A stretch of 63,993 nucleotides of DNA, the filler included, from Sphacelaria rigidula (Eukaryota): assembly GCA_964200075.2 (NCBI GenBank). It is 3 parts of 3 records of this genome, joined end to end, with 100 filler letters (N's around TTAATTAATTAA, not from the genome) between each part and the next. Parts side by side here need not be neighbours in the genome. Positions count along the whole stretch, not along the records: positions 21,605 to 43,106 come from CAXNAA020000412.1; 2 more parts are not named here. The stretch is one strand, 5' to 3'. Made by a program: the position numbers and the translations under genes. How positions within the stretch are numbered: position 1 is the stretch's first letter; the number at the start of each line of letters is the position of its first letter. The notes beneath the pieces are model-generated. The model saw only the letters and a program-made list of their open reading frames with translations, did no database searches and was not told the DNA's origin. Shown piece by piece: positions 5,687-43,206 of this stretch.

Positions 5687-6227
5687 GGCGTTGCTAGATT
5701 CAGGCGCGTTGTGAAGATGACTACATGTACAGTAGGATACGCTACTCCCGTATTCCGCCCGAGCATCATGTGCTAGTGTAATTACTAGGTTTCACGATAG
5801 GATGGTAACCCAAAATACACAGGGGGAATTGGGGGAGGACCTATGTAAAATGAGAGTAAATGACAGAAAAAGCGGGAAACAGCTCCCCGCCCATGGCGGC
5901 TTTTTTTTGCTTCGAAGGGTTTTTTGTGGGTCAGGGACAGGGTAAACACAACAACTCGGCAGTGACATCACACACGTCAACAGCCCCTCCCCACTGGTCG
6001 TTCGGATGTGGTCGATAAATTTCGTCTCGCCATGATTGGCAGGTCGCTCGCAGACTTTTTTATTAATAGTTCACCAACACATGGTAAACCCCTTGTTACT
6101 GAAAGGGTTAATCGGTAGATACTCTTCGAGACCATACCGGAGTGTTCGGCAGTAGAGCTCGATATCCTTCCGAACCACATACGAGCTGGTTCAGGCACAT
6201 CACCCAAAAAACACTAATCGGCAAAAC

Positions 6228-6900
6228 CTCACGCCGTTTCAAGGAGTTAGACCCTGACGTTTTGCACACATGTTCTATGGGGCATTACACAACTTTCGAA
6301 GGTCGAGGTTTTCGACTTCTTTACATTTTTCACCGTTTTTCAGGCGTCCCAGTTTTGTCCGGGAAACATCGACCCAATCGGATCCCCGTAAAACGGGAAA
6401 GAAGGGAAAACTCGGAAAACCTCGTTCATACAAAGTTGCGCAATGACCCATAGCACAGCTGTGCAAAATTTCAGGGTCTAACTCCTTAAAACGGCGTGAG
6501 ATTCTTCTCTTTTGTGCGTTTAACTTTGACGTGCCACGGTGAAACCGCAAACTACTTGATTTTTGTACCAAATCGCCCTTTTGGGGCCTTCTTTGACGTG
6601 AACATGAAAACTCAAGCATCCGTTGATCGAGTTATACGACAAAACTTTGTGGGACCCTTCCTCGGGTCATGCGGAGACAGCTCGCTCACGAAAATTGAAA
6701 TATATATATCGTCGTGCCGGTTTTCCCGGGTCCCAGAATGGAGACTACTTCGAAAAACAACTTCGATCCCGTCGGACACCCGGAAAACGGTGAAAAACTC
6801 AGGAATTACAAAAAAACATCGTCCGTAGAAAGTTGAGTGATGATACATAGCACATTTATGCAAAGTTTCAGGATCTAACTCCTCATGACAGCGTGAAGGT
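6228..6900. repeat. Fold-back repeat family (~90-bp module in inverted and direct copies)
   Basis: CTCACGCCGTTTCAAGGAGTTAGACCCTGA... at 6228 is inverted at about 6410-6500 and again at about 6810-6897; related copy at 14120-14385. Confidence 0.7.
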
Positions 6901-13916: not shown

Positions 13917-14912
13917 TCAATCAAGATGTACTTTTTCTTGTTTGAATCCAACAGCAAAGTGATATTCATTGCCTATTCAGCTTACACGTGTACCCCTGAC
14001 GTAGAACTGCAGTTACTCCCGTTTCAAAGTCAAAATACTTTTCTACAAAAAAAAAGTCAAGTATACTAGTCAGGAGTTTGTGACCATCGAAGGTCATCTC
14101 ATCACACACGAGCACGAATGCTCACGCCGATTCCTGGAGTTAGACTCTGGAACTTCGCACACAACTACTATGAAACATCACGCAACTTTTAATAAATGGG
14201 ATATTTCGATTTTTTTCCTCTTTTCGACAATTATCAGGTGTCCCAGAAGGGCACGTGATCCCCAAAAGTCCCCAAAAATAACTGTCGAACAAAAAACGAA
14301 AGGCCCATCCACTGAAAGTTTTGTAATGTTTTTTAGTTAGGGTATGCACATTTTTTTAGAGTGTAACTCTACGAATCGGTGTAAACATTTCACACCCTGG
14401 ACAATATATGGTCAATAGATTCAATAGACGAGAAGTGTACTGCATCAAGTATAGGCCTATTGCAACTATTGCCGGCCAACAATAGCCGCAATAGGCCTAT
14501 ACTTTATGCAGTACGTATCTTGTCTATTGCAACTTTTGACTATATTTTGTCCAAGGTGTGAAACAATTGCACATGAATGAATTTTGAGTGACAGCGCATG
14601 ACCCAGCTCGTATCTCCTTTTCAGTCGTTCGCAGTGCACCTCAAATCTGCATGTGTGGATGTGGTACATCAAGTCACGCGTCTTCACGCCCAATTTCACA
14701 GGAGAGCGGCTTACGAGTTGAACCCTTTCAGCGCCCGACGCTCGACCATCTCCTTTCCAGCGGGGGGTTTGGGACTAACGATTTATGGTGGGAAGACAAC
14801 GCCTCCACATGCAATATCGTCGCCATACGTAAACTGTGCGTTGCTGCAAGCCTTCAATACCAGTACCCGACAGTTCTGAAAGATATGTGCGAAATATTTA
14901 CCCTTACCCGTC

Positions 14913-21504: not shown

Positions 21505-21604
21505 NNNNNNNNNNNNNNNNNNNNNNNNNNNNNNNNNNNNNNNNNNNNTTAATTAATTAANNNNNNNNNNNNNNNNNNNNNNNNNNNNNNNNNNNNNNNN
21601 NNNN
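21505..21604. other. Assembly gap with artificial TTAATTAATTAA linker
   Basis: N44-TTAATTAATTAA-N44, identical in layout to the second gap. Confidence 0.97.
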
Positions 21605-23091: not shown

Positions 23092-26000
23092 ATGAAGAGG
23101 TCAATGCATGAAACCGGAAATCCCTTCTTCGCGCAGCGGCTGTTAGTGAACATATACGGCATCGACTACACGTCGTACCTCGAAAACACGATACGAGTCC
23201 CCCGCTTTATCCTCTCACCGCGCTTTACTACATGATGACTCCGCGAAACACGCCCAGTTTGCCACAGCTGCTTCCCCACTGCTTGGTCAGAGACACGATG
23301 AACATTGAAGCTGGCGTCAACATTGACATTCTACGTTGCTTTGTCTCCCATGCCGTTCTATCGTCAACAGGCGGAGAACTACCACATCTCTTGGATACCG
23401 GGTAACTGCTCGCCGATTCTCACCAGGAAAGAGCTATCTCACCGTTTCAAGGAAATGAAACGTATCGGCGCGGGTGGTCAAGGGACCGTGTACGAAGGTA
23501 ATATCGGGCTCGTTACACCTGCGTACCAACCTGCATAAACTTGACCCGAAGACAACGGTGCCATTGATATACATTCGCTTGGGTTGTGATTTTCAAAAAC
23601 GCACGTAAGACTGGGGAGGATGCTTGTCCTGGGCATACACGGATGACAACTGGTACACGTTGTCTCACGATATGCACATGCTCAACGTACGGCTGATAAC
23701 AACCGTACCACGTACATGTATTCAAGACGCATCTCAAGATATGTGCAGACTTTCAAAGGTCGTACGACGCGACTCGGGTTGAGGAGATGCGCATTCATAA
23801 CCTGACTAACGTCGTACATACGTAATCTACCTGCCTGTAATCTGGAGACACTGGGATATGCGGATGACGCGGGATAATACGCGAAATCATTCACCAGCCA
23901 TAGCTAGCGCATTTCAGATTTTTCTGTCCAGGGGCGCCGTTGTATCAATCGCGCCTTTCTCGTCCACTACAGCATGTGATATTGTCAGCTACGATCGAAC
24001 ATTTCATTTGCTTGTGAGGTATACCGCTAGCTTGTCCTTCGGCGATGACCCTGTGTGCAAACCTGTCACCGATAGACGTAACTCCTAGTACGATGTTAGG
24101 GCGATAGCGACGAGTCTTGAGATTTTAAGCCAAGGCCAACGGCAGGCGTATCTGGATCTACCGATGGAGAGATGCGTTGACCGAATTCACATGTTGAACG
24201 GTATTGGATGCCAGCGAGTACTGCTAATCATAGTTTTTCTTCATGTGTGCATGGTAGTTTCTGGGGGCTTGTGCCCCTGCCAACGCTGCTACCAGTATGC
24301 AGGAAGGGGAAAGTTGCCCGTGGATGCGTCATCCAGTCGACGCATGGGTCCGATTTCCTTTGTATTTCCCGCTGCTTGTTGGTGTTGTGTTGTTGGAGGG
24401 TTGCATGGTTGGAGGTGAGGGCAGCAGAGGCAGAGAATACTGACCCGGAGGAGGTCGTTGTTCTGCGATATGTTCCAACATTACCATGACGTCACGACAA
24501 ACATTCATGCGGATTTGCTGTGCTTGCGAATGGAGGGTACGTTCGAAAAAATGCAGCTGGTCCCAACAGGGTGTACATACGGTGTTGAGAGCAGTGGCGC
24601 CGTTCCTGGGTACGCTTCTGAAGAGAAACGTCCTACTAACGTTTGGCCCTTGCCCGATTGGTCTTTCACCCTCTGCCGATGTGATCGGTTCCGTATCGTC
24701 CGAAGAAAACAACAAACATAACCAGACACCGCGCTGACTCTGTGTTATAAGAGTCATAGAGGCTCTCAAGGGTCCCCACCACGTCCCAGGATCTGCTCCG
24801 CATGTCACTGTGCGATGCACTGTGGCCATACTTCCTGCTGCGTCTGCCCCGACTTTCCCTGCTGTTCCCCACGCCATCCTCTCTTGTCCAGCAGCCGTGG
24901 ATCGGAACACGGGCGAGCGGTGCGCTCTCAAGGTTATCAAGGGTGGCTCTAGTGAACGGGAACGCCGAAGTGTAAGCCAGCCCTACTTACGAGGAAACAA
25001 GATAGAGACGCACGTTGTGCCACCACGTCACATGCCACCACCGCTTTCCTCGAGTTTGCACAACAACGCCGAGTCGATTTCTCCGCTTTTATTGTTTTGT
25101 GGCAAACTCACTAAAAAATGACGCATAGCGGAGCAGAGGTGTTGATGCACGCTCCTGCAAGTATCACGCTGAGCGTACTTCCTGTTTCCGCTTGCTCAGG
25201 TGTGCAGCCTCACCTACAAGAGAGCGGGAAAGGAAACTGCCCCGCACAATCTCTGCTCTCTGAGAGACGAAAATCCTTCGCTCCTTGAGCCCCGCGAACG
25301 TGTACTACTGTATCACTAATCCCACAAGAGCGAGGGTATTCTGCAAAACCTCCAGGGCCTCACCCCCGATGCTTTTGCCGTTCGTACCTCGGCCGACCCT
25401 TGAGCTGCACGCGTGTAGGTCGCTGCGTGCGTGAAGCGCGAGATCCGGATGATGCAGACATCCGCAGAGGGAAACAGGCAGAGCGTCGTGGGGTGAGCGT
25501 GTGAAGAGTCTCTCGAGCATACGGATTTGTTGATGAGTATCTTCCAAGCAACCGTTTTTGGTGCTGTTTCTGGGTAAGTGACATGTGTATGCGTAGCTTG
25601 TGGTCGTTCGAGAAAAGCTTCTGATTTTGGTCATGACAAGAGGAAACTGCGACATACACCCTGTCATAATCAACTACCGACATAGCGGGTCGAAGCGAGA
25701 CTTCTGAACGTCGGGTACGAAAACAGGATACGCGGAGATACCGGTACGGTGATCATCAAGTGTATCGAGTATCGAGACAGATCATTGACGAATACTGCAG
25801 CCTATCTACGCTTGTTCCATTTTATGTCTTGTACAACGACGAACAGATTCAAGGGCTACATCCGTTGCAAGAATTCCCACGTCATTCTGATGGAGTTCGC
25901 TGAAGGGGCGGATCTTTTTGAATTTCGTAAGAAGATCGCAACGGCGTCACGCACTCGAAATCTGCCTCTTGCCATGGTCAAGAAAATCGCTCGAGGCGTC

Positions 26001-29000
26001 CTGGGGGCTCTCCGACGTATGCACCGCAATGGTGTCGTACACCGCGACGTGAAGGGGGAGAATATCATGGTTGATAGTAACAACAACATCAAGGTAGGTC
26101 TGCACATCATACCGTGCACTCGATTCCTATCTTTTCCTATCTCGGATGGCTGATGCTGCACCACAACGAGTGCCGCGTGAGAATAGCCATTTTTGTCTCC
26201 TGGATGGAATCCGCGTGGCGAGTTTTGCTACAATATATAATGTGTCGGTGCTCAGATTCTTCAACTTCTTATTGTTGCTATTCAAGCCACTGCTCATTAT
26301 TGACGACCGGGGGCTGTGACGGCCGGGAGTGTCATGCGGTGGTGCCTACCTTGTCTTGTTACACGGTGGGTCAGCACTCCCCCCTTGATCTGGACCGTAG
26401 TAATTGACGGCGGTATATTGTCTCGAGCACATTTTTCGCTTCCGTCGGAGCTTCTGCCACGTACCCACTTTGCCCATACGTCTCAAGAAGAAACGTGGCG
26501 AGTCCACGGTACGAAATGTCCACCTCACCGATGGATGACTTTGAGCACATCCCGCGGGACAAGGATCAAACGGGATTGAATACAGGTGATCTGTATCAGT
26601 CTTGGGTGTGAACCGTGAGCACTGCAGCGAAAACCCGCAAAGCAAATAGCTGCGAATCGTTCGTCGAGCAGAATGGTATTTGAAGCCTTCCCTCAAGTGC
26701 TTACGCCGTAGCGTGACAATATCTGCTTGCATCAGACGCTAGGTACATGGCCATTGTTTCTCGTCTTGAATGTGTACGCCGGAAATCCTCCCCGACTTGC
26801 CCATGCTCCTGTCTTTTCCCCTGCAGTTGATCGACCTCGGCCAAGCTTCAAAGGCGGGAGCGAATGGTCTCGTGCGGCCAAGAAACGTGGGGACGCCTAC
26901 ATACAGGGCACCTGAGGCCGTCATGAATCTGGAACACGATGGCTATAAGGTGAGCGACGAACATTAAACACTGCGGATGCGAAAGTCATGGTATTGGTCA
27001 GGATGAGGCTGATCTTGACATGAACAACCGTAAAAAGACTCCAGTCTAGCACTTTCGGTGCGATCAAACTTTCGACGTGGGAGCACAAATGCGAACCTGC
27101 AATCGCACACGGTTCTGTAGAAATGCGGGCGAGTTGGTCAAAATGTTTCATTTTGTTTCCCCGGGCAAAGCGCTCAAATGGTTTCTGAACGTACGTATCG
27201 TGACGATAGAGGCCTATCCGAGTGTGTTTCATGAGCTGACCGATCTGGATACCGCAGAAAGTGATCTGCATGCCTCACAAGACACCTTGTTCATTCTTAC
27301 ACGATGCTTGTGTTTTTGCAGTAGGGTGCATCCGAATTGGGAAAGCGTTGGTTGAAATCGATTTTTTCAAGTTCTTCGGATACAACCACCTATCACGCTG
27401 AATTTTCCACCCCCAAACATGGGGCCCGAGAGGAATGAGTATCTGTTTCAACTTCCCGACCGAAAATAATCTCAATGAACAATACTGAACGACTTGCGAC
27501 CTACTGTAGCCTGTCATGGAGGATTCTGTGGCCATATACAGCCCCCGGTTTCAGACTCTCCAGTATTTTCGTTCAATCGACCCAATCCCAGTCGTCCTGG
27601 TGGACAACCTTCGATTTGGATTTGTTTGTTTGATTGATTGATTGCCGCACATTGGCTGATCCCCAGGAGTCATGATTCAGCCGAGGTCAAATGATGGACG
27701 CACCCGAGATAAAAACAAAACGAAACCAAACATTACCTCAAGAAAGGCGAAGGGATCATGAAGACAGGACAGACAAGCCGGGGAGACTGGATTATTTTCC
27801 CGAAGGTCTAGATATTCATTGCGCTCCAGTCGAAAAACCGTGTTGTTGTGCCAAACACAGTCCACGATATCCCCGACAAACAGCATTCATTTCGTCTTGT
27901 TCCGGACACAAAATAGGTGGGACATGTGTCCTCAGCACGACCTACTGTTTTTCACCAATATCCACGTGCTCTACACTAGCACTGCCGATTGTTGATATTG
28001 ATACAATTTGATCAGCGAAAAGTCCTGATTGAGTCATGTCCTGACTCAGATGCACCGTACGGTGCAGGAACCGATATTTCAGCCTCTCAGGACTTGCCAC
28101 CGCACAACTGATGCTCAACCCGACGGATCTGGAGCAGCAGCGATGTGTGATGGTTGCAAGAGTTACCTTAATTCACACCTGGTTCTGAGCGTTATTTGGC
28201 TACCCACCACATAAGCGCGTGTCAACTGTTGTTGTTGTTGTGGTGGTGGTGGTGGTAGTGGTCGTCGTCTTTACATGAAAAGTCAATTCGATATTTGCGC
28301 AGTACGTCTTGCTTCCGCACTGGGCATCTGATGCGGAGGCCTTCCGTCGTCACAGGTTATCTATCCGAAATAAGGTATAGGTTGATAAATGAAAATAGAA
28401 TATGACCGAGAAAAATTGATACGGACACCAATTCCTCTGTCTAATATCCACCCCTTGACACAAGGTTCGGCCTGCAGTGGGAGAATACAACGCTCGTTTG
28501 ACCTCTGTACCTTTCTGTCGTGACTGCCGCCAATGTACGCGCGCTGTTGGAATTTCCCCACGATTGACTGGCACCAGGCGGATGTGTGGAGTGCGGGGGT
28601 CGTGATATATCAAACCTTGACGATGAGACCGCTCTTGCGGTCAAACAACAGCGCACAGGAGGTATGTGGTTATAACCACTGTAATTTGTCGTTTGCTTTC
28701 TGCTCCGTGGTGAAACCTTGTAGCAAAACCTTTCTTAACCTCGATCCACGCAGAAATATGGCCGGACTCGAAATTCACCGCCGCATAACACAGTCTTGCG
28801 CCCTGTTGTTCCTAGCCACACCGTATGATATTGACCTGCTATTATCAATGCTTTAGCGTCTAAAGATGGTATCGGGTTGGAGGGTTTGAAGCCATCGGTA
28901 GCCTAAACCGACGGTGCCTCGTGTTTTGGTGTTGGTGTTGGTGTCTGTGTTGGTGTCTGTGTTTCGCCTTTGAAAAGTGCAAGATCTACGTGCCATCAAT

Positions 29001-31077
29001 CCTACTCGATGTACGTAAGTGGAGCACGGTGAACTACCGTCAACTTTAGAGGAACCTTCCTTTGTGTTCCGAGGACTACGGCACTACAACAAACTCAAAT
29101 GAGCACTGAACCAGCATGAATGCGTGCGCCGTTGCCTGACTCTCGTCGTTTATCCACCATCTTGACATTTGAATCGGTACGTTATGGCCAGCCCCTGAGT
29201 TGGGGACAATATGTTGAAGATGACACAGCACGAGACCTGCTGAGGGGAATGTTGCATCCTGACCCTGCAGACAGATTGACGGTGGATGCCGCCCTCGCCC
29301 ACCCATGGCTGCGGAATGAAGATGCCGCTACCGCTGCCGCTGAGAAGCCGGAACCTGCCACGACGGTGAGTACCCGAGCACAGTATTGTACGAGTAGTGC
29401 ACTCGCAAGAATGTTCACGCTTGTTGTTTGGCGTTGTAACGAAGCCCCCGGTGTCGCATCGATAGACACAGCTACTGGTAAGGCCAGTTCTGCGCGTTTG
29501 TTTCCACGAACCGAGTCGCGAACGTACTGTCGAGCAGCATCACCGGTGAGTCAGGTAGATTTTTCAACGTTCAGGTGGCCTATTTCTTCTCGACCGCACG
29601 TCTGGGCGTCAAGCTATCTCTTGAGACAAGCGTCATTGTTACGACGTGAGATTGCGCCGGTAGTCATCCCGTGAACCCGGATGCTCGTCCCACACATATG
29701 TAGATGGGGGCTGGTTCATTCGTGCTCTGGTGTACGCGTTCGGTGACTATACGGCCAATTGCAACCATATGCCGACGACCAATTTCTCATCCGTACGTAC
29801 ATGTACAGCTTGACCCGACGCCGCGGATGTCATGATCGTCTCTCCGCCACGTTGATGTGGTGCTTGTTTGTATTTATTCTATGGGTACTAAGATGCAGGA
29901 AAGAGCAAGCGTTGGGAAGGGGGATGGAAACTATGCCCATGGCACCCTCGTTGGTGCAGCAAAACTCGTCCGCCGCCCACCGAAAGCTACTGGTAAATGG
30001 CGGCGACGAGAAGCAGACGACACGACTCCTGCTACCGCTGATGAAGGTGCCAAATGTTTCACCGGAGAGACTGCTACCAAATATGAATCACGAGCGGAAC
30101 AGCCCCGCAACAGTGTGAATGTATCGCGGTACACCCGCGCAAGGGAAGTCGATAAAAATGAACATGACGGCATATTTGGTCGACGTCCGTTGCGTGGGTT
30201 CGCCGCGTTATATCTACACTGTTACTCGCAGGATTTTTCCGCTGTTGATTCAAATTCGACAGCAGTCTCTCCGATGCAACATTCGTCACCTTCATTAGCA
30301 GTAGCAGCAGTCATATCGTCTGCTTCTTGTCGCCGGCGATTACCTGCAGCTTTCGGTGAGCGACGGACGAGTTTTGCTGCAGACGAGGTTCAGTCACTGA
30401 TGTGTTTATGCTGGTTCAGTCTATTGTGAGTATGTTCCAATGCCGAAGCCCTCAAAAGACAAGTGAACGTACCAGACAAATGATGGGGGGAACAGTATGT
30501 GCCCTCGGCATGGTATAATCGGATTATGTTTTCTGTCGAACAAGATTGTCCCTTTCACCAACCTCGACTTCGACGTGATGAACAAGAGGTATACCTCTCT
30601 AATACATTGGCGTGAGAGGTGTTGGTGCTTGGTCCGCGAAAACGAAACATGATCGTATGATGCTGATGGTGTTTACTTGGGAAACGACCAAGTTGGGTAC
30701 TTTATTTTCTCTCGCGCCGTGTCTCCGGGAGAGGAGACTCATTTATGACGAATTTCTCCGAACATGGTAAATCTACCGACGTCCTTCCCGTGCCGAAAAT
30801 GACACAGGATGCAGTTGGAGCGACTCCACAGGCTGGTCCAGAAGCTCCAGCATCGATTGTGCAGGGTAGGTGCAATAGCAGCGGGGTTGAATCAAGGAAC
30901 AGTAACAAGAAGTCCGCGAAGAGGCGTTTGGAGGACGACCTGGTGGTAGAGTCAGACGGGAACGTGGAGAACGGGGATGGGTTGAGGAATGCGGGGGTAA
31001 AGCGGAAGTTGGAAATACGAGAAGCAAGCGGGACAGTGGGCCAGAAGAAGAAAAAGAGTCAGAGTGAGACTGACTAG
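23092..31077 (+). CDS. Intron-rich Ser/Thr protein kinase (divergent, CAMK-like by C-lobe motifs) with a basic C-terminal tail
   Basis: Phase-consistent GT-AG exons: 23371-23497 (IGAGGQGTVYE), 24895-24971 (CALKVIK), 25419-25492 (VKREIRMM, alphaC Glu), 25847-26093 (ILMEFAEG...HRDVKGEN), 26827-26949 (DLG...GTPTYRAPE), 28578-28661 (ADVWSAGVVIY), 29192-29365 (DPADRLT..ALAHPW). Less certain: first exon 23092-23190/23196, microexon 28984-29010, exon 29899-30355 (or -29992), and last exon 30734-31077 with KRR/KRK/KKKK clusters. Confidence 0.88.
29946..30388. ncRNA. Long imperfect hairpin; candidate miRNA/siRNA precursor overlapping a kinase exon
   Basis: Arms 29946-30160 and 30171-30388 are reverse complements at roughly 80% identity by eye, around a ~10-nt loop (AACATGACGG). 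The inverted repeat is certain; the RNA function is inferred. Confidence 0.5.
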
Positions 31078-33589
31078 GGAGGTGTAGTGCTGGAGTGTGG
31101 CGTATAACGGATTTCGTTCCACGCTGAACTGCGCTAACAACATCATGGTTCGCTGGTCGTAGCAATAGTGCACACAGGAATGGTGCCCAGCTTGTGGAGA
31201 CCAAGTGTACCCCTTGCTAGTATAGTGCTTGTGCAGGATTATTCCCTGTACATTCTCTGTATGAGTGGGCCATTCGTGAACTGAGGAGAGCACAAGGAAT
31301 CGAGCGGTGTCACTTGCACGCTATTCCATCGACGGGGTCGAAAGGGGGGGGGGGGGGCTGGATATCGTAAAAAAGTATGTAAAGTGCTCGTCATGTGTCG
31401 GCCTGGCTCAACCGATCGATCAGGTTGGCATGAGTATCACCTCAACCCACTAGCGAAGGTTTGGCAGGGTGATGGAGTTAGTGTATCACAAACAACGACG
31501 TACAAGCGTGGTGTTGTGAAATTGTACTGTTCCACAAGTTCCGATTGTTCAAGTGGAGTTTTAATTACATATGACATATTCATGATGGGGGGGGGGGGGG
31601 GCGTTCAGATAATGACTGCTTTCGTAAGGATTGCTACAACGACGGAGCTTTGTGACTCCCGGTTGCGTATGAGGATGGCTTCATGCTGATCTTATGGTGA
31701 GAAATGTGACGGGGAGGGAACAAGGAAAGAGGTGCGTGGATTAATTAGCGTGTGTAGACTTCGTAGTGGGCGGGGATGTTAAGGGGAGGGGGAGGGGGGG
31801 GGGGGGTAGGTGTTTTTAGTGTTCTTGACGTTCTTGTGGTGCCAGGTTTCGTGTTGTTCCGTGACCGTGACCCTAAGCCGTCAGTATTCTTGTGTCGTCG
31901 TTGTTCTTGATATCGGTTATGCGAAATGGAAGATATGCGTGTATCGTCAGGGGTTGCCACGAAAATGCTCCCGGCTGCCAGGACTCAGTGGAATGAGTAG
32001 ATCATTGATGGAGGCCTAGTCGTAGAATGGCCGAGTGGTGAATGGTCCGTTTAAACCGGAGTGGAACTCCGGCGGAGTATACACGTTGGGGTGAAGGAGA
32101 CGTACGATAACGCGATATACTGGGTATTACAGTCAACCTTAGCTGACATATCGTTTTGTACGGTCGCCCCCTCAACAGTCTAGACGTAAAGGTCCCCTAA
32201 AGTCGAAACTTGTTGAATATTTGGTGCTACCCCTACGTGTTAGTGCTATTCCCCAGCGGGTGGTGGGCGTGTTAGCAAGCGGTGACGTACCCTTTAGAGG
32301 AGTGCTATCTTCTATGTGTGCTTGCCCAGGTGAATCTTTGATGTTATGACCGCGGGTCTGAATAATAGAGTTGATGAGGCAGTAGAATAACTACGGGGGG
32401 GCAGAAGGTCAAGACTCCGAGAGCCTGCGACATCGCTAGTTAAGTATGGTACATTGGTGCGGCGACTACTCGGACACGCGATGCGCCAAAATCGTTTACA
32501 GTAGGTATGTGCCAACGAATGTCGTAATGTCAGGGCCATATGTTGAGGTTTCAATTGTAGTGTCCCACCTTGCATGGGGGTAAAGAGGGACAGTGCTCCT
32601 AGGCACATGAAGGCCATAGTTGGTGGTGTGGATATAAACTCCTGCGGCTTTTGAGCCTTTTATCAACAGTGAATGTTCACGCGGTACATGGCTTTGTGCT
32701 ACGTTGGTCGGGAAAAAAGGAACTCGCGGTACTAGTAGTCCTTTACTTTTCTCGTTCGATGCCCTTGCTCGCGTGTTACCAAGCAGATATTCCCAGTAGA
32801 CGCCAGGTGGCCCAGGAGTGGGCAAGGTGGGCACATAGGATACGTTTCCAGGAGAGACGAAGATATTCCTTCTCGGGGATTTGGAGTTTGACACGTATAT
32901 TGTTTCACCAATTGCGGTAGTCCACGGCACGTGGACCGTCGAATTTCGACACCAACCTCATCACATCGTGCATACTTAACGCTACTACATTTTTAATGAA
33001 TGGCTGAACGATTCAACACACATGGTGGAACATTACCCCGTCTTCACCGTATGTGCTATCGGCCATCGAATTCCCATGGCAACATATATGTATACTGTGC
33101 TACTGTAGTGTATAATGATATACAGTAAGAATATACCACCGCGCCACGGTGGTTTAACTGCTTCAACTGAAACCAGTTACGGCTGAGGAGAGCCAACGAT
33201 TCTTATTCAGGTGGATGCGTTTGATTTTTTTCTGAAAAACATGTGGTTTCCATCAGTATGTAGCCTCTACCTGACGATCTGGAGAAGAGGATTTTCAACG
33301 AGGGACTCCTCCAGTATCACTGGCCTCGTGCTCGACAAGTCCTTTCTTCTCACTTTTTATTATCACGGAGCGATCCAGAAACAGACCACATCATGAGCCA
33401 GACAGCAAGGGGCCACAAAGATAAGGGCCATCCAGGATATATTCCAGGATCCCCTGTCCCCTGCCACTGCTCCAACCATGCATGCGATTATTCTGAAATC
33501 TACGGCTTGGTATCATTTGGCTACAGCACCCCCGAAGCGAATTCAAGACAAACGAACAAGCTTGACAATCAACAAAAACCAAGGCGAAA

Positions 33590-35443: not shown

Positions 35444-36048
35444 CCGGTCGCCTCAGTGGAAACCTTCTGACAATTGGGACGTGGGTTCGAATCTCGGGAC
35501 GACCTGGGATTTTCTCTCACACCATGCCCAAGAGTGTGTTGTCATCCCATCTATTCTGGACGCTAGTCTACACCTTTCGGTATATGTGGGCGCACCAGCC
35601 GGGGTCACAAAGGAGGAAGGCCAACACAGGAGATTTTCGTTTTTGTTTTGCTTTAGTTCTCCACCTTCTTTCTGCGGTGCTTGCCTTTATTTTTTATTGC
35701 GAGAGGAGATTAGCAGTCCCTTTCCCTCGTCGACCATTGAGTCGAATTTTGTGTACCGACGACATAGTCGCTCTTCACTGTTGGGCATGAGAAAACATCC
35801 CAAATCATTCTGAGATTCGAACCCACGGCCCAACCGTCAGAAGGTGCCTAGGTTACCAACTGAGACAGCGGGGCGACCGGCTAGAGTGGAGAGCGACTAT
35901 GTCGTGCGTACACAAAGCCCTACTTCAATATCGACGAGGGGAGGGACCGCTGAGCCCTTCCCTCGGTAAAAAGAAAGGCAAGCACCGCAGAAGGGAGGTG
36001 GAGTACTCAAAAGACACAAAAAAACTCCTGTGTTAGCCTTCCTCTGTG
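35444..36048 (+). mobile_element. tRNA-derived SINE (family 2), split by an antisense copy of itself
   Basis: Head 35444-35536 (GGTTCGAATCTC B box) resumes at 35883-36048; AGAGTG is duplicated at 35531-35536 and 35883-35888. Confidence 0.75.
35537..35882 (-). mobile_element. tRNA-derived SINE (family 2), full-length nested copy
   Basis: Minus-strand head ...TCTCAGTTGGTAA...GGGTTCGAATCTC; the body is homologous to both flanking halves. Confidence 0.75.
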
Positions 36049-43106: not shown

Positions 43107-43206
43107 NNNNNNNNNNNNNNNNNNNNNNNNNNNNNNNNNNNNNNNNNNNNTTAATTAATTAANNNNNNNNNNNNNNNNNNNNNNNNNNNNNNNNNNNNNN
43201 NNNNNN
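43107..43206. other. Assembly gap with artificial TTAATTAATTAA linker
   Basis: N44-TTAATTAATTAA-N44. Confidence 0.97.

Follow-up and report, generated by a model that had tools for sequence, protein, structure and literature searches.

A long single-copy inverted repeat with an open reading frame inside a protein kinase gene of Sphacelaria rigidula

The hpRNA loci of Drosophila are the classic case of hpRNAs, and the inverted-duplication model of 2004 is said to yield small RNAs that are complementary to the parent sequence by construction. Long inverted repeats (LIRs) encoding hpRNAs that are processed to siRNAs of 21–22 nt are catalogued in LIRBase, whose settings, as given in the excerpted text of its description, require about 80% or more matches between the arms and at most 10% indels (PMC8728187). 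According to the excerpted text of the surveys of Ectocarpus and Saccharina japonica, 75% of the miRNA loci of these brown algae are located in genes, 93–97% of those being intronic and mostly on the host strand, and the authors proposed an origin of the miRNAs from genomic hairpins; the same text reports no evidence of miRNAs derived from coding genes (PMC4513859; PMC5381526). The structural criteria quoted for a miRNA locus in the second survey are at least 15 nt paired with the opposite arm, a terminal loop of at least 8 nt, and no additional loops (PMC5381526). The same survey also asks for small-RNA reads of both miRNA and miRNA*, 3′ overhangs of 2 nt, and one 5′ end common to at least 66% of the reads.

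The locus considered here is a hairpin of 443 nt (29946..30388, no strand assigned) close to the 3′ end of a protein kinase gene of S. rigidula. All positions refer to the window, that is, the whole analyzed stretch of DNA, 63,993 nt in length. The hairpin comprises a 5′ arm (29946..30162), a spacer or apical loop of about 9–10 nt (30163..30171, as placed by the + strand fold and the split of the arm alignment), and a 3′ arm (30172..30388). Two arms of about 215 nt around a loop of about 10 nt had been proposed in an earlier, sequence-only reading of this DNA, and the repeat search, blastn, and RNAfold confirmed the hairpin. The arm complementarity is 77–82% across methods. When the arms are aligned over their full length, 171 of the 221 columns (77%) are identical, 42 are substitutions, and 8 (3.6%) are indels; the reverse self-match of the hairpin extends over 433 nt at 78.1% (blastn, stretch vs. 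window); and the repeat search within the window delimited arms of 154 nt that are 82% complementary. The latter arms form the best-paired basal block (29955..30108, partner 30228-30381, i+j=60336), which contains 27 mismatches in 154 columns.

Each strand folds into a long stem. The + strand gives one stem without branches, in which 182 pairs lead to a terminal loop of 10 nt (−281.5 kcal/mol vs. −137.4 ± 6.2 kcal/mol for shuffled sequences, z = −23.4), and the − strand is more stable (−300.6 kcal/mol, z = −26.7); 0 of 100 shuffles equaled the hairpin in either case. When G.U pairs are allowed, the uninterrupted helices reach 36, 19, and 23 bp on the − strand vs. 18 and 20 bp on the + strand.

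The hairpin has several close parallels. Like the hpRNA loci catalogued as LIRs, the hairpin has two arms of a few hundred nucleotides and a short loop, and is not a multi-copy transposon; its predicted RNA is a long, imperfectly paired duplex that greatly exceeds a typical pre-miRNA in length. At 77% over the full arms and 82% in the best block, its arm identity straddles the 80% cut-off of LIRBase; unlike the LIR loci as the excerpted description presents them, it lies within a protein-coding gene and contains an open frame. The inverted-duplication model is matched by the long, near-symmetrical inverted duplication and by an arm with coding-like periodicity; if the parent were the host exon, however, precursor and target would be one transcript, a situation outside the model. 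Finally, the hairpin shows the structural traits asked of brown-algal miRNA loci in the excerpted criteria, namely an unbranched stem, a 10-nt loop, and helices of 18–20 bp on the + strand (PMC5381526). It also shares with these loci, as far as the excerpts describe them, an unusually long foldback and a location within a protein-coding gene, where it is probably intronic and oriented as the host is, whereas its length of 443 nt (mean foldbacks are 170–183 nt) and the codon-like frame pattern of one arm set it apart (PMC4513859; PMC5381526).

The hairpin is real genomic DNA, present in a single copy at 80% or greater likeness. It is crossed in full by one contig (28318-30830, 0 differences) of DNA data set X1 (record 6) and by one contig (28499-30830, 12 differences) of data set X4 (record 14, labeled “algae metagenome”), the two contig sets coming from different studies and behaving as DNA, since exons and introns are covered alike. 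An assembly artefact was ruled out by these crossing contigs from independent studies. Contig depth, at a likeness threshold of 80%, served to estimate copy number. Over 29396-30531, the summed depth in each set is that of the lone spanning contig (62.3 in X1, 27.9 in X4), the same over the hairpin as over its single-copy flanks, and the repeats in introns of the same gene have summed depths of 3946, 62094, 1696, and 46792 in the same contig data. Single-copy depth and spanning contigs therefore argue jointly against a multi-copy fold-back transposon as well as against an artefact. Of two further data sets, X5 is sparse and covers introns too, and X8, a run guessed to be RNA, has contigs on repeats only (7/30 bins) and says nothing on expression.

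The depth data also bear on an origin from a fold-back transposon or MITE, of which the hairpin could be a relic if the other copies had been lost or had diverged beyond recognition. Such an element, like the hairpin, is made up almost wholly of terminal inverted repeats enclosing a short loop; moreover, very high-copy repeats occupy introns of the same gene, and further hairpin repeats occur in the window. The single-copy depth at 80% or greater likeness in both DNA data sets nevertheless speaks against this origin, as do the blastn search, which found no second hairpin copy in the 64-kb window (other matches were 22 nt or shorter, E ≥ 0.98), and the flanks beside 29946 and 30388, in which no target-site duplication was seen by eye. 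The open reading frame (ORF) of the hairpin likewise had no match in IMG/VR viral contigs. We consider the relic highly improbable. The sequence-only reading had separated the hairpin from the local MITEs because it lacked target-site duplications and other copies in the window, and this separation stands. The same reading had named many genomic copies with such duplications as evidence that would overturn it; the depth at 80% or greater likeness corresponds to a single copy.

Within the kinase gene, the hairpin is flanked by one coding and one coding-like feature of the + strand. The last protein-kinase-domain exon (29192..29365, start approximate) corresponds to positions 233-263 of the 263 positions of the Pfam Pkinase profile and ends in phase 0 at a GTGAGT donor (29366-29371). 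A Lys/Glu-rich, coding-like C-terminal exon (30808..31077) ends at a TAG codon (31075-31077) and scores +3.18 vs. −8.2 and −7.85 in its other two frames. The frame is also preserved when the hairpin is skipped, with 29365 joined to 30808 via a CAG acceptor (30805-30807). The protein search gave no match to the last kinase exon ORF, the catalytic-loop exon, or the tail exon at E ≤ 0.001. Two metagenome loci (L001 and L002) matched by the last kinase exon were rejected as relatives: their match (62% over 29 residues), GC content of 65–69%, and lack of DNA similarity indicate unrelated kinases.

On balance, we favor, with little more than even confidence, the reading of the hairpin as an old, lineage-specific, single-copy long inverted repeat, most likely located in the last intron and neutral or nearly so. 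A segment of about 215 bp would have given rise to an inverted copy of itself, set apart by a spacer of about 10 nt, and the two would since have diverged by about 22%. The repeat would be positioned between the last kinase-domain exon and the coding-like C-terminal exon, most likely in the last intron (29366-30807). It would presumably be transcribed within the kinase pre-mRNA, and its RNA may fold into an imperfectly paired duplex, about 200 bp long, and be removed with the intron; the duplex could also be diced into heterogeneous siRNAs. Genomic hairpins of this type are what brown-algal miRNAs have been proposed to come from. We treat the repeat as neutral or nearly neutral, and not as an established regulator, because no sign of selection on the peptide or on the pairing was observed.

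The hairpin also carries an open frame. One + frame is open from stop to stop over both arms (29836..30426, 197 codons in the ORF scan), with 0, 3, and 9 stops inside the hairpin in the three + frames, and any + frame was open in only 0.7–0.9% of shuffled palindromes (20000 trials). A candidate CAG acceptor (29896..29898, + strand) with a T-rich tract upstream sets the exon start at 29899, which matches the donor at 29366 in phase (0). Both the stop-free + frame through the two arms and its phase with the acceptor ending at 29898 had been noted from the sequence, and the ORF scan and phase check agree with that description. On the other side, a candidate GTGAGT donor (30426..30431, + strand) contains the TGA stop of the frame and sets the exon end at 30425, in phase 2. 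The candidate exon (29899-30425) is 527 nt long, which is not a multiple of 3, and can be continued in frame to the tail exon from 30425 to an AG at 30730-30731 (exon start 30732), which follows a strong pyrimidine tract. The open frame is therefore bounded by in-phase splice signals: CAG at 29896-98, GTGAGT at 30426, and AG at 30730-31. A mirtron-like arrangement, in which the hairpin ends would themselves serve as splice sites, was rejected by eye; a CAG is present at 30380-82, but the surroundings of the corresponding GT at 29950 are unfavorable for a donor.

Three observations sit uneasily with the intronic reading: such an open frame is unlikely by chance, splice signals occur in phase on both of its sides, and the 5′ arm is not clearly non-coding. 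They would be accounted for if 29899-30425 were a real coding exon of the kinase, included at least sometimes and adding an unconstrained, probably disordered, lineage-specific insert before the Lys/Glu-rich tail. Coding potential was compared by a crude position-specific score trained on 732 nt of kinase exons (leave-one-out range −2.9 to 4.2). The 5′ arm, whose composition is mildly coding-like in the open + frame, scored −0.57 bits/100 nt, which ranks it at the 83rd percentile among 1661 windows free of stops, and the 48 nt preceding it scored +2.18, both about as the kinase exons do. In contrast, the + frame of the 3′ arm resembles an antisense read, its translation being rich in Ser, Leu, and Cys, and scored −7.56 (4.5th percentile). 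The candidate exon as a whole scored −3.88 vs. a mean of −3.1 for the stop-free windows, and the GC3 of the open frame is 0.41 vs. 0.52–0.71 in the kinase exons.

The divergence between the arms does not have the pattern expected of a conserved peptide. In the basal block, each third codon position of the + frame faces another third position, and the mismatches are distributed over the codon classes as 12/51 (1,2), 8/51 (2,1), and 7/52 (3,3). There is hence no wobble excess in the arm divergence, only 7 of the 27 mismatches being at third/third positions, although this arm-vs.-arm test has little power if one arm alone is constrained. The differing codons are mostly non-synonymous in both frames (19 of 22 in the 5′-arm frame, against 3 synonymous, and 18 of 22 in the 3′-arm frame, against 4 synonymous). 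Two of the three X4 differences within the candidate exon alter a residue, and the AG at 30730-31 has a G at −3 vs. the CAG of the hairpin-skipping acceptor.

Protein searches point in the same direction. Among 1,835,955,588 representative proteins, the hairpin ORF had only two matches. One of them (P0001) is an ORF of the 2332-nt DNA contig of X4 itself. The other (P0002; 978 aa, E = 1.8e-13, 17 stretches, 26% identity) was rejected as a homologue, since it is a tandem 53-residue repeat and the repetition inflates its score. As the kinase and tail exons are also matchless in the protein library, the absence of a homologue of the hairpin ORF is weak evidence. Pfam gave no match to the hairpin ORF on either strand, and of the 15 window ORFs of at least 170 codons only the kinase-exon ORF matched a family, the hairpin ORF being among the 14 others. 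A single-sequence AlphaFold2 model of the 175-residue candidate exon was uninformative (mean pLDDT 40.8, pTM 0.15). Furthermore, a stem of about −280 kcal/mol within a coding region should hinder translation. The proposal of a dual-use exon made in the sequence-only reading thus fares poorly: the lack of wobble excess, the low score of the 3′ arm, the absence of a true homologue, and the in-frame skipping model all lean against it, and we regard a coding exon here as rather unlikely. Chance, together with a codon-like periodicity of the arm sequence, which may stem from coding DNA, is the best explanation of the open frame.

A different function would be that of a selected small-RNA gene, in which a sense or antisense hairpin is diced to miRNA-like or siRNA species that act on the kinase transcript, providing autoregulation. 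Both strands give a long, stable stem, with the longer helices on the minus strand; in addition, brown-algal miRNA foldbacks are described in the excerpted surveys as long (mean 170–183 nt) and mostly genic (PMC4513859; PMC5381526). The antisense argument rests on the G.U bias of the basal block, for which the sequence-only reading had counted 11 of 14 transition mismatches as G.U-compatible on the minus strand only, with no such bias toward the loop. Our recount of the basal 154-bp block gave 13 of 17 (binomial p = 0.049), a C/A against G/T asymmetry of 13:4, and the apical part, with 2 of 7, is indeed free of this bias and even reversed; over the whole hairpin, however, the ratio is 15 of 24 (p = 0.31). 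The minus-strand bias is therefore weak: it reaches only borderline significance in a block that was selected post hoc, and it is absent overall. An antisense hairpin would also depart from the 90–94% of brown-algal genic miRNAs that, in the excerpted survey, are on the host strand, and 443 nt far exceeds the published mean foldback, “extended hairpins” with several small-RNA species having been screened out there (PMC5381526).

Variation within the species gives no sign of constraint on the hairpin. In the one data set compared (X4), 2 of 443 hairpin bases differ from the window (0.45%) vs. 36 of 8501 (0.42%) over the stretch compared, a SNP density no different from that in the flanks. Each of the two polymorphic sites has an allele that disrupts or weakens pairing: at 30154, the A of the window mismatches G30178, whereas the C of X4 pairs with it, and at 30368, the T of X4 converts a G-C pair to G.U. 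An Rfam search over 29300-31100 yielded 0 matches at E ≤ 1. Taken with the evidence above, a selected small-RNA gene appears unlikely.

A more specific variant would have the 5′ arm be, or have been, C-terminal coding sequence of the kinase and the 3′ arm an inverted copy of it within one transcription unit, making a self-targeting proto-miRNA. We hold this to be very unlikely; if it were true, dicing of the hairpin formed by the gene's own exon would cleave the transcript and at the same time release small RNAs directed against it. It would then represent a proto-miRNA born inside its own target, in a lineage for which the surveys, in their excerpted text, found no evidence of miRNAs derived from coding genes (PMC4513859).

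The interest of the locus differs accordingly between the readings. If the hairpin is merely an intronic inverted repeat, it is one more example of the raw material for brown-algal miRNAs and of little further interest. If RNA data showed that the mature mRNA retains the stem, or that the stem is diced, it would be a natural self-targeting hairpin within a kinase gene and a dated snapshot, at about 22% arm divergence, of a small-RNA locus born from host-gene sequence. For annotation, the hairpin serves as a warning, as gene finders are likely to call an open, splice-compatible palindrome as an exon.

Long hairpins are common in this stretch. The window contains two others, one located at 14379-14572 (z = −17) and one at 6207-6521 (z = −13).

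The hairpin in the kinase gene is a long inverted repeat, with an intron as its likeliest place, and nothing in the tests run supports the sequence-only reading of a dual-use locus whose small RNAs would autoregulate the kinase's own exon. The inverted repeat at 29946-30388 (443 nt; arms 29946-30162 and 30172-30388) is genuine, being recovered by a repeat search, a blastn self-match, an alignment of the arms and folds of both strands. The repeat search of the window returned arms of 154 nt at 29955-30108 and 30228-30381 that are 82% complementary (the basal block), and blastn against the whole window gave a reverse self-match of 433 nt (78.1%), no second copy, and otherwise only matches of up to 22 nt. 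Aligned globally, the 5' arm and the reverse-complemented 3' arm agree in 171 of 221 columns, the rest comprising 42 substitutions and 8 indel columns. The plus-strand RNA folds into a single stem without branches, made up of 182 pairs and closed by a 10-nt loop (-281.5 kcal/mol), compared with a mean of -137.4 ± 6.2 for shuffled sequences (z -23.4, none of 100 equally good); the minus strand forms 186 pairs (-300.6 kcal/mol, z -26.7). An Rfam search with the hairpin returned no match.

Contigs from two public DNA data sets of different studies, X1 and X4 (the latter labelled 'algae metagenome'), were compared with positions 24000-32500 at a likeness threshold set deliberately low (80%). The whole hairpin is crossed by one contig in each set, at 28318-30830 without differences in X1 (record 6) and at 28499-30830 with 12 differences in X4 (record 14). 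Over 29396-30531, the contig depths add up to exactly the depth of the single spanning contig, 62.3 in X1 and 27.9 in X4, in agreement with unique sequence nearby (62-72 and 28-32, respectively). One spanning contig with matching depth in both sets thus rules out a local multi-copy element as well as an assembly artefact, and shows the hairpin to be real genomic DNA, single-copy at 80% likeness or more. The earlier remark that it does not resemble the local MITEs and has no other copy in the window is upheld by blastn and by these depths. High-copy repeats do occur in or beside the kinase gene, at 27408-27975, 28260-28543, 28828-29111, and 31668-31951, with X1 bin depths of up to 3946, 62094, 1696, and 46792, respectively. 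Loose contig ends at about 28356-28363 continue into A-rich sequence.

The hairpin lies between the last kinase exon and a Lys/Glu-rich tail ORF. Plus-strand ORFs match pieces of the Pfam Pkinase profile at approximately 25850-26093, 26827-26949, 28560-28663, and 29192-29365, the last covering the profile end (positions 233-263 of 263) and followed by a consensus phase 0 donor, ACG|GTGAGT, at 29366. The tail ORF (plus strand, 30733-31077, stop TAG at 31075-31077) appears coding-like under a position-specific base model, with an in-frame score of +3.18 bits per 100 nt vs. -8.2 and -7.85 in the other two frames. Pfam assigns it to no family and the database searches gave it no relative; its basic clusters resemble nuclear-localization signals. 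Downstream of the tail exon are G runs of about 16-17 nt (31343-31358 and 31586-31602); X4 carries one additional G at 31343, as well as an insertion of 28 nt after 31634.

Two candidate plus-strand gene models, with the hairpin included or skipped, both keep the reading frame. The first uses an exon at 29899-30425 (acceptor CAG at 29896-29898, phase 2 donor GTGAGT at 30426) and a next exon starting at 30732, after an AG at 30730-30731 with a strong pyrimidine tract ahead and G at -3; the second joins 29365 to 30808 through the acceptor CAG at 30805-30807. Since the candidate exon is 527 nt long, not a multiple of three, it is no simple cassette.

As proposed earlier, one plus frame runs stop-free across both arms in phase with the CAG acceptor at 29898; it spans 29836-30426 (197 codons), and the acceptor also fits the phase 0 donor at 29366. 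That this frame is a genuinely coding, real exon seems unlikely. Any open plus frame occurs in merely 0.7-0.9% of 20000 dinucleotide-shuffled palindromes, and the 12 plus-strand stop triplets inside the hairpin are split 0/3/9 by frame; yet several comparisons speak against coding. The basal block geometry (i+j=60336) sets third codon positions opposite third positions, so coding constraint on both arms should concentrate differences there, whereas mismatches number 12/51, 8/51, and 7/52 in classes (1,2), (2,1), and (3,3), with third positions holding 7 of 27 (p=0.54 against evenness). Differing codons are synonymous vs. non-synonymous in 3 vs. 19 cases in the 5'-arm frame and 4 vs. 18 in the 3'-arm frame, and GC3 is 0.41, as against 0.52-0.71 in kinase exons. 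With the base model trained on five kinase exons (732 nt), the 5' arm scores -0.57 (83rd percentile among 1661 stop-free windows of 72 codons) and the 3' arm -7.56 (4.5th percentile); the whole candidate exon (-3.88) is about the non-coding mean of -3.1. In our reading the 5' arm retains a codon-like periodicity, the duplicated piece having perhaps once been coding; the 3' arm would be its antisense, and the open frame through both arms partly luck.

Among 1.84 billion representative proteins, the hairpin ORF has only two matches: P0001 is an ORF of X4's own 2332-nt DNA contig, in which X4's two hairpin variants appear as residue changes, and P0002 was dismissed as a tandem-repeat artefact. 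Long ORFs lacking a known domain are common: of the 15 ORFs in the window with at least 170 codons, Pfam matches the kinase-exon ORF alone and none of the 14 others, which include the hairpin ORF. Past its donor, the last kinase exon's frame also stays open for 102 codons (29366-29671); scoring -5.6, i.e., non-coding, this extension is another chance-length ORF and illustrates how stop-poor the DNA is (stop triplets at 3.6% of positions vs. 4.7% expected). An AlphaFold2 model of the candidate exon from the single sequence reached an uninformative pLDDT of 40.8. We retain the real exon as an unlikely alternative because the arm-vs-arm test is weak if one arm alone is constrained and the coding model derives from 732 nt.

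The minus-strand bias of G.U-compatible mismatches, put at 11 of 14 in the sequence-only reading, was roughly reproduced in the basal block (13 transition mismatches favouring minus vs. 4 plus, p=0.049), but is borderline for a block picked post hoc; the apical part has 2 vs. 5, and the whole stem 15/24 on the minus and 9/24 on the plus strand (p=0.31). Of the 10 C/T differences in the basal block, 9 have a 5'-arm C aligned with a T in the reverse complement of the 3' arm, and a strand-asymmetric mutation spectrum could explain the bias equally well. Between X4 and the window, 36 of 8501 sites differ (0.42%; two rows inside a high-copy repeat, common to all runs, are omitted), of which 2 lie among the 443 nt of the hairpin (0.45%). 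At 30154, the window's A is mismatched to G30178, with which X4's C pairs; at 30368, X4's T changes a G-C pair with 29968 to G.U on the plus strand and to a C/A mismatch on the minus strand. Within this comparison of two sites, pairing shows no visible constraint.

In Ectocarpus (PMC4513859), miRNA foldbacks have a mean length of 170 nt, and 75% of the loci are in genes, chiefly introns, on the host strand for all except three; the survey found no sign that they stem from coding genes or transposons, and proposed genomic hairpins as source. Saccharina foldbacks average 183 nt, with 97% of genic loci intronic, and that survey excluded candidates on extended hairpins with more abundant small-RNA species (PMC5381526). 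The boldest reading still standing, a putative proto-miRNA that arose when an exon of the host gene itself was duplicated in inverted orientation, is graded as very improbable here. The kinase hairpin fits into the same general class as the long inverted repeats of LIRBase, which, as its description has it, are transcribed to hpRNAs and diced to siRNAs, although a repeat among the 6.6 million catalogued from 424 genomes is not necessarily transcribed (PMC8728187).

Neither of the two further long hairpins in the window has sequence kinship to the kinase hairpin. That at 14379-14572 has 93-nt arms, 82% complementary, and a spacer of 8 nt (-112.6 kcal/mol, z -17); that at 6207-6521 has 132-nt arms, 73% complementary, 51 nt apart (-142.8 kcal/mol, z -13). 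The region 35462-36022 is a possible SINE- or MITE-type element: it holds three nested inverted-repeat pairs (arms 55-61 nt, 77-84% complementary), one carrying a GGTTCGAATC-like, tRNA-like motif, and ARAGORN found no tRNA in it. At 21505-21604 and 43107-43206, a 12-nt TTAATTAATTAA is flanked on each side by 44 N, a pattern resembling an artificial six-frame-stop linker. The window thus probably consists of three separate pieces, each about 21.5 kb long and placed end to end, with the kinase hairpin on the piece at 21605-43106.
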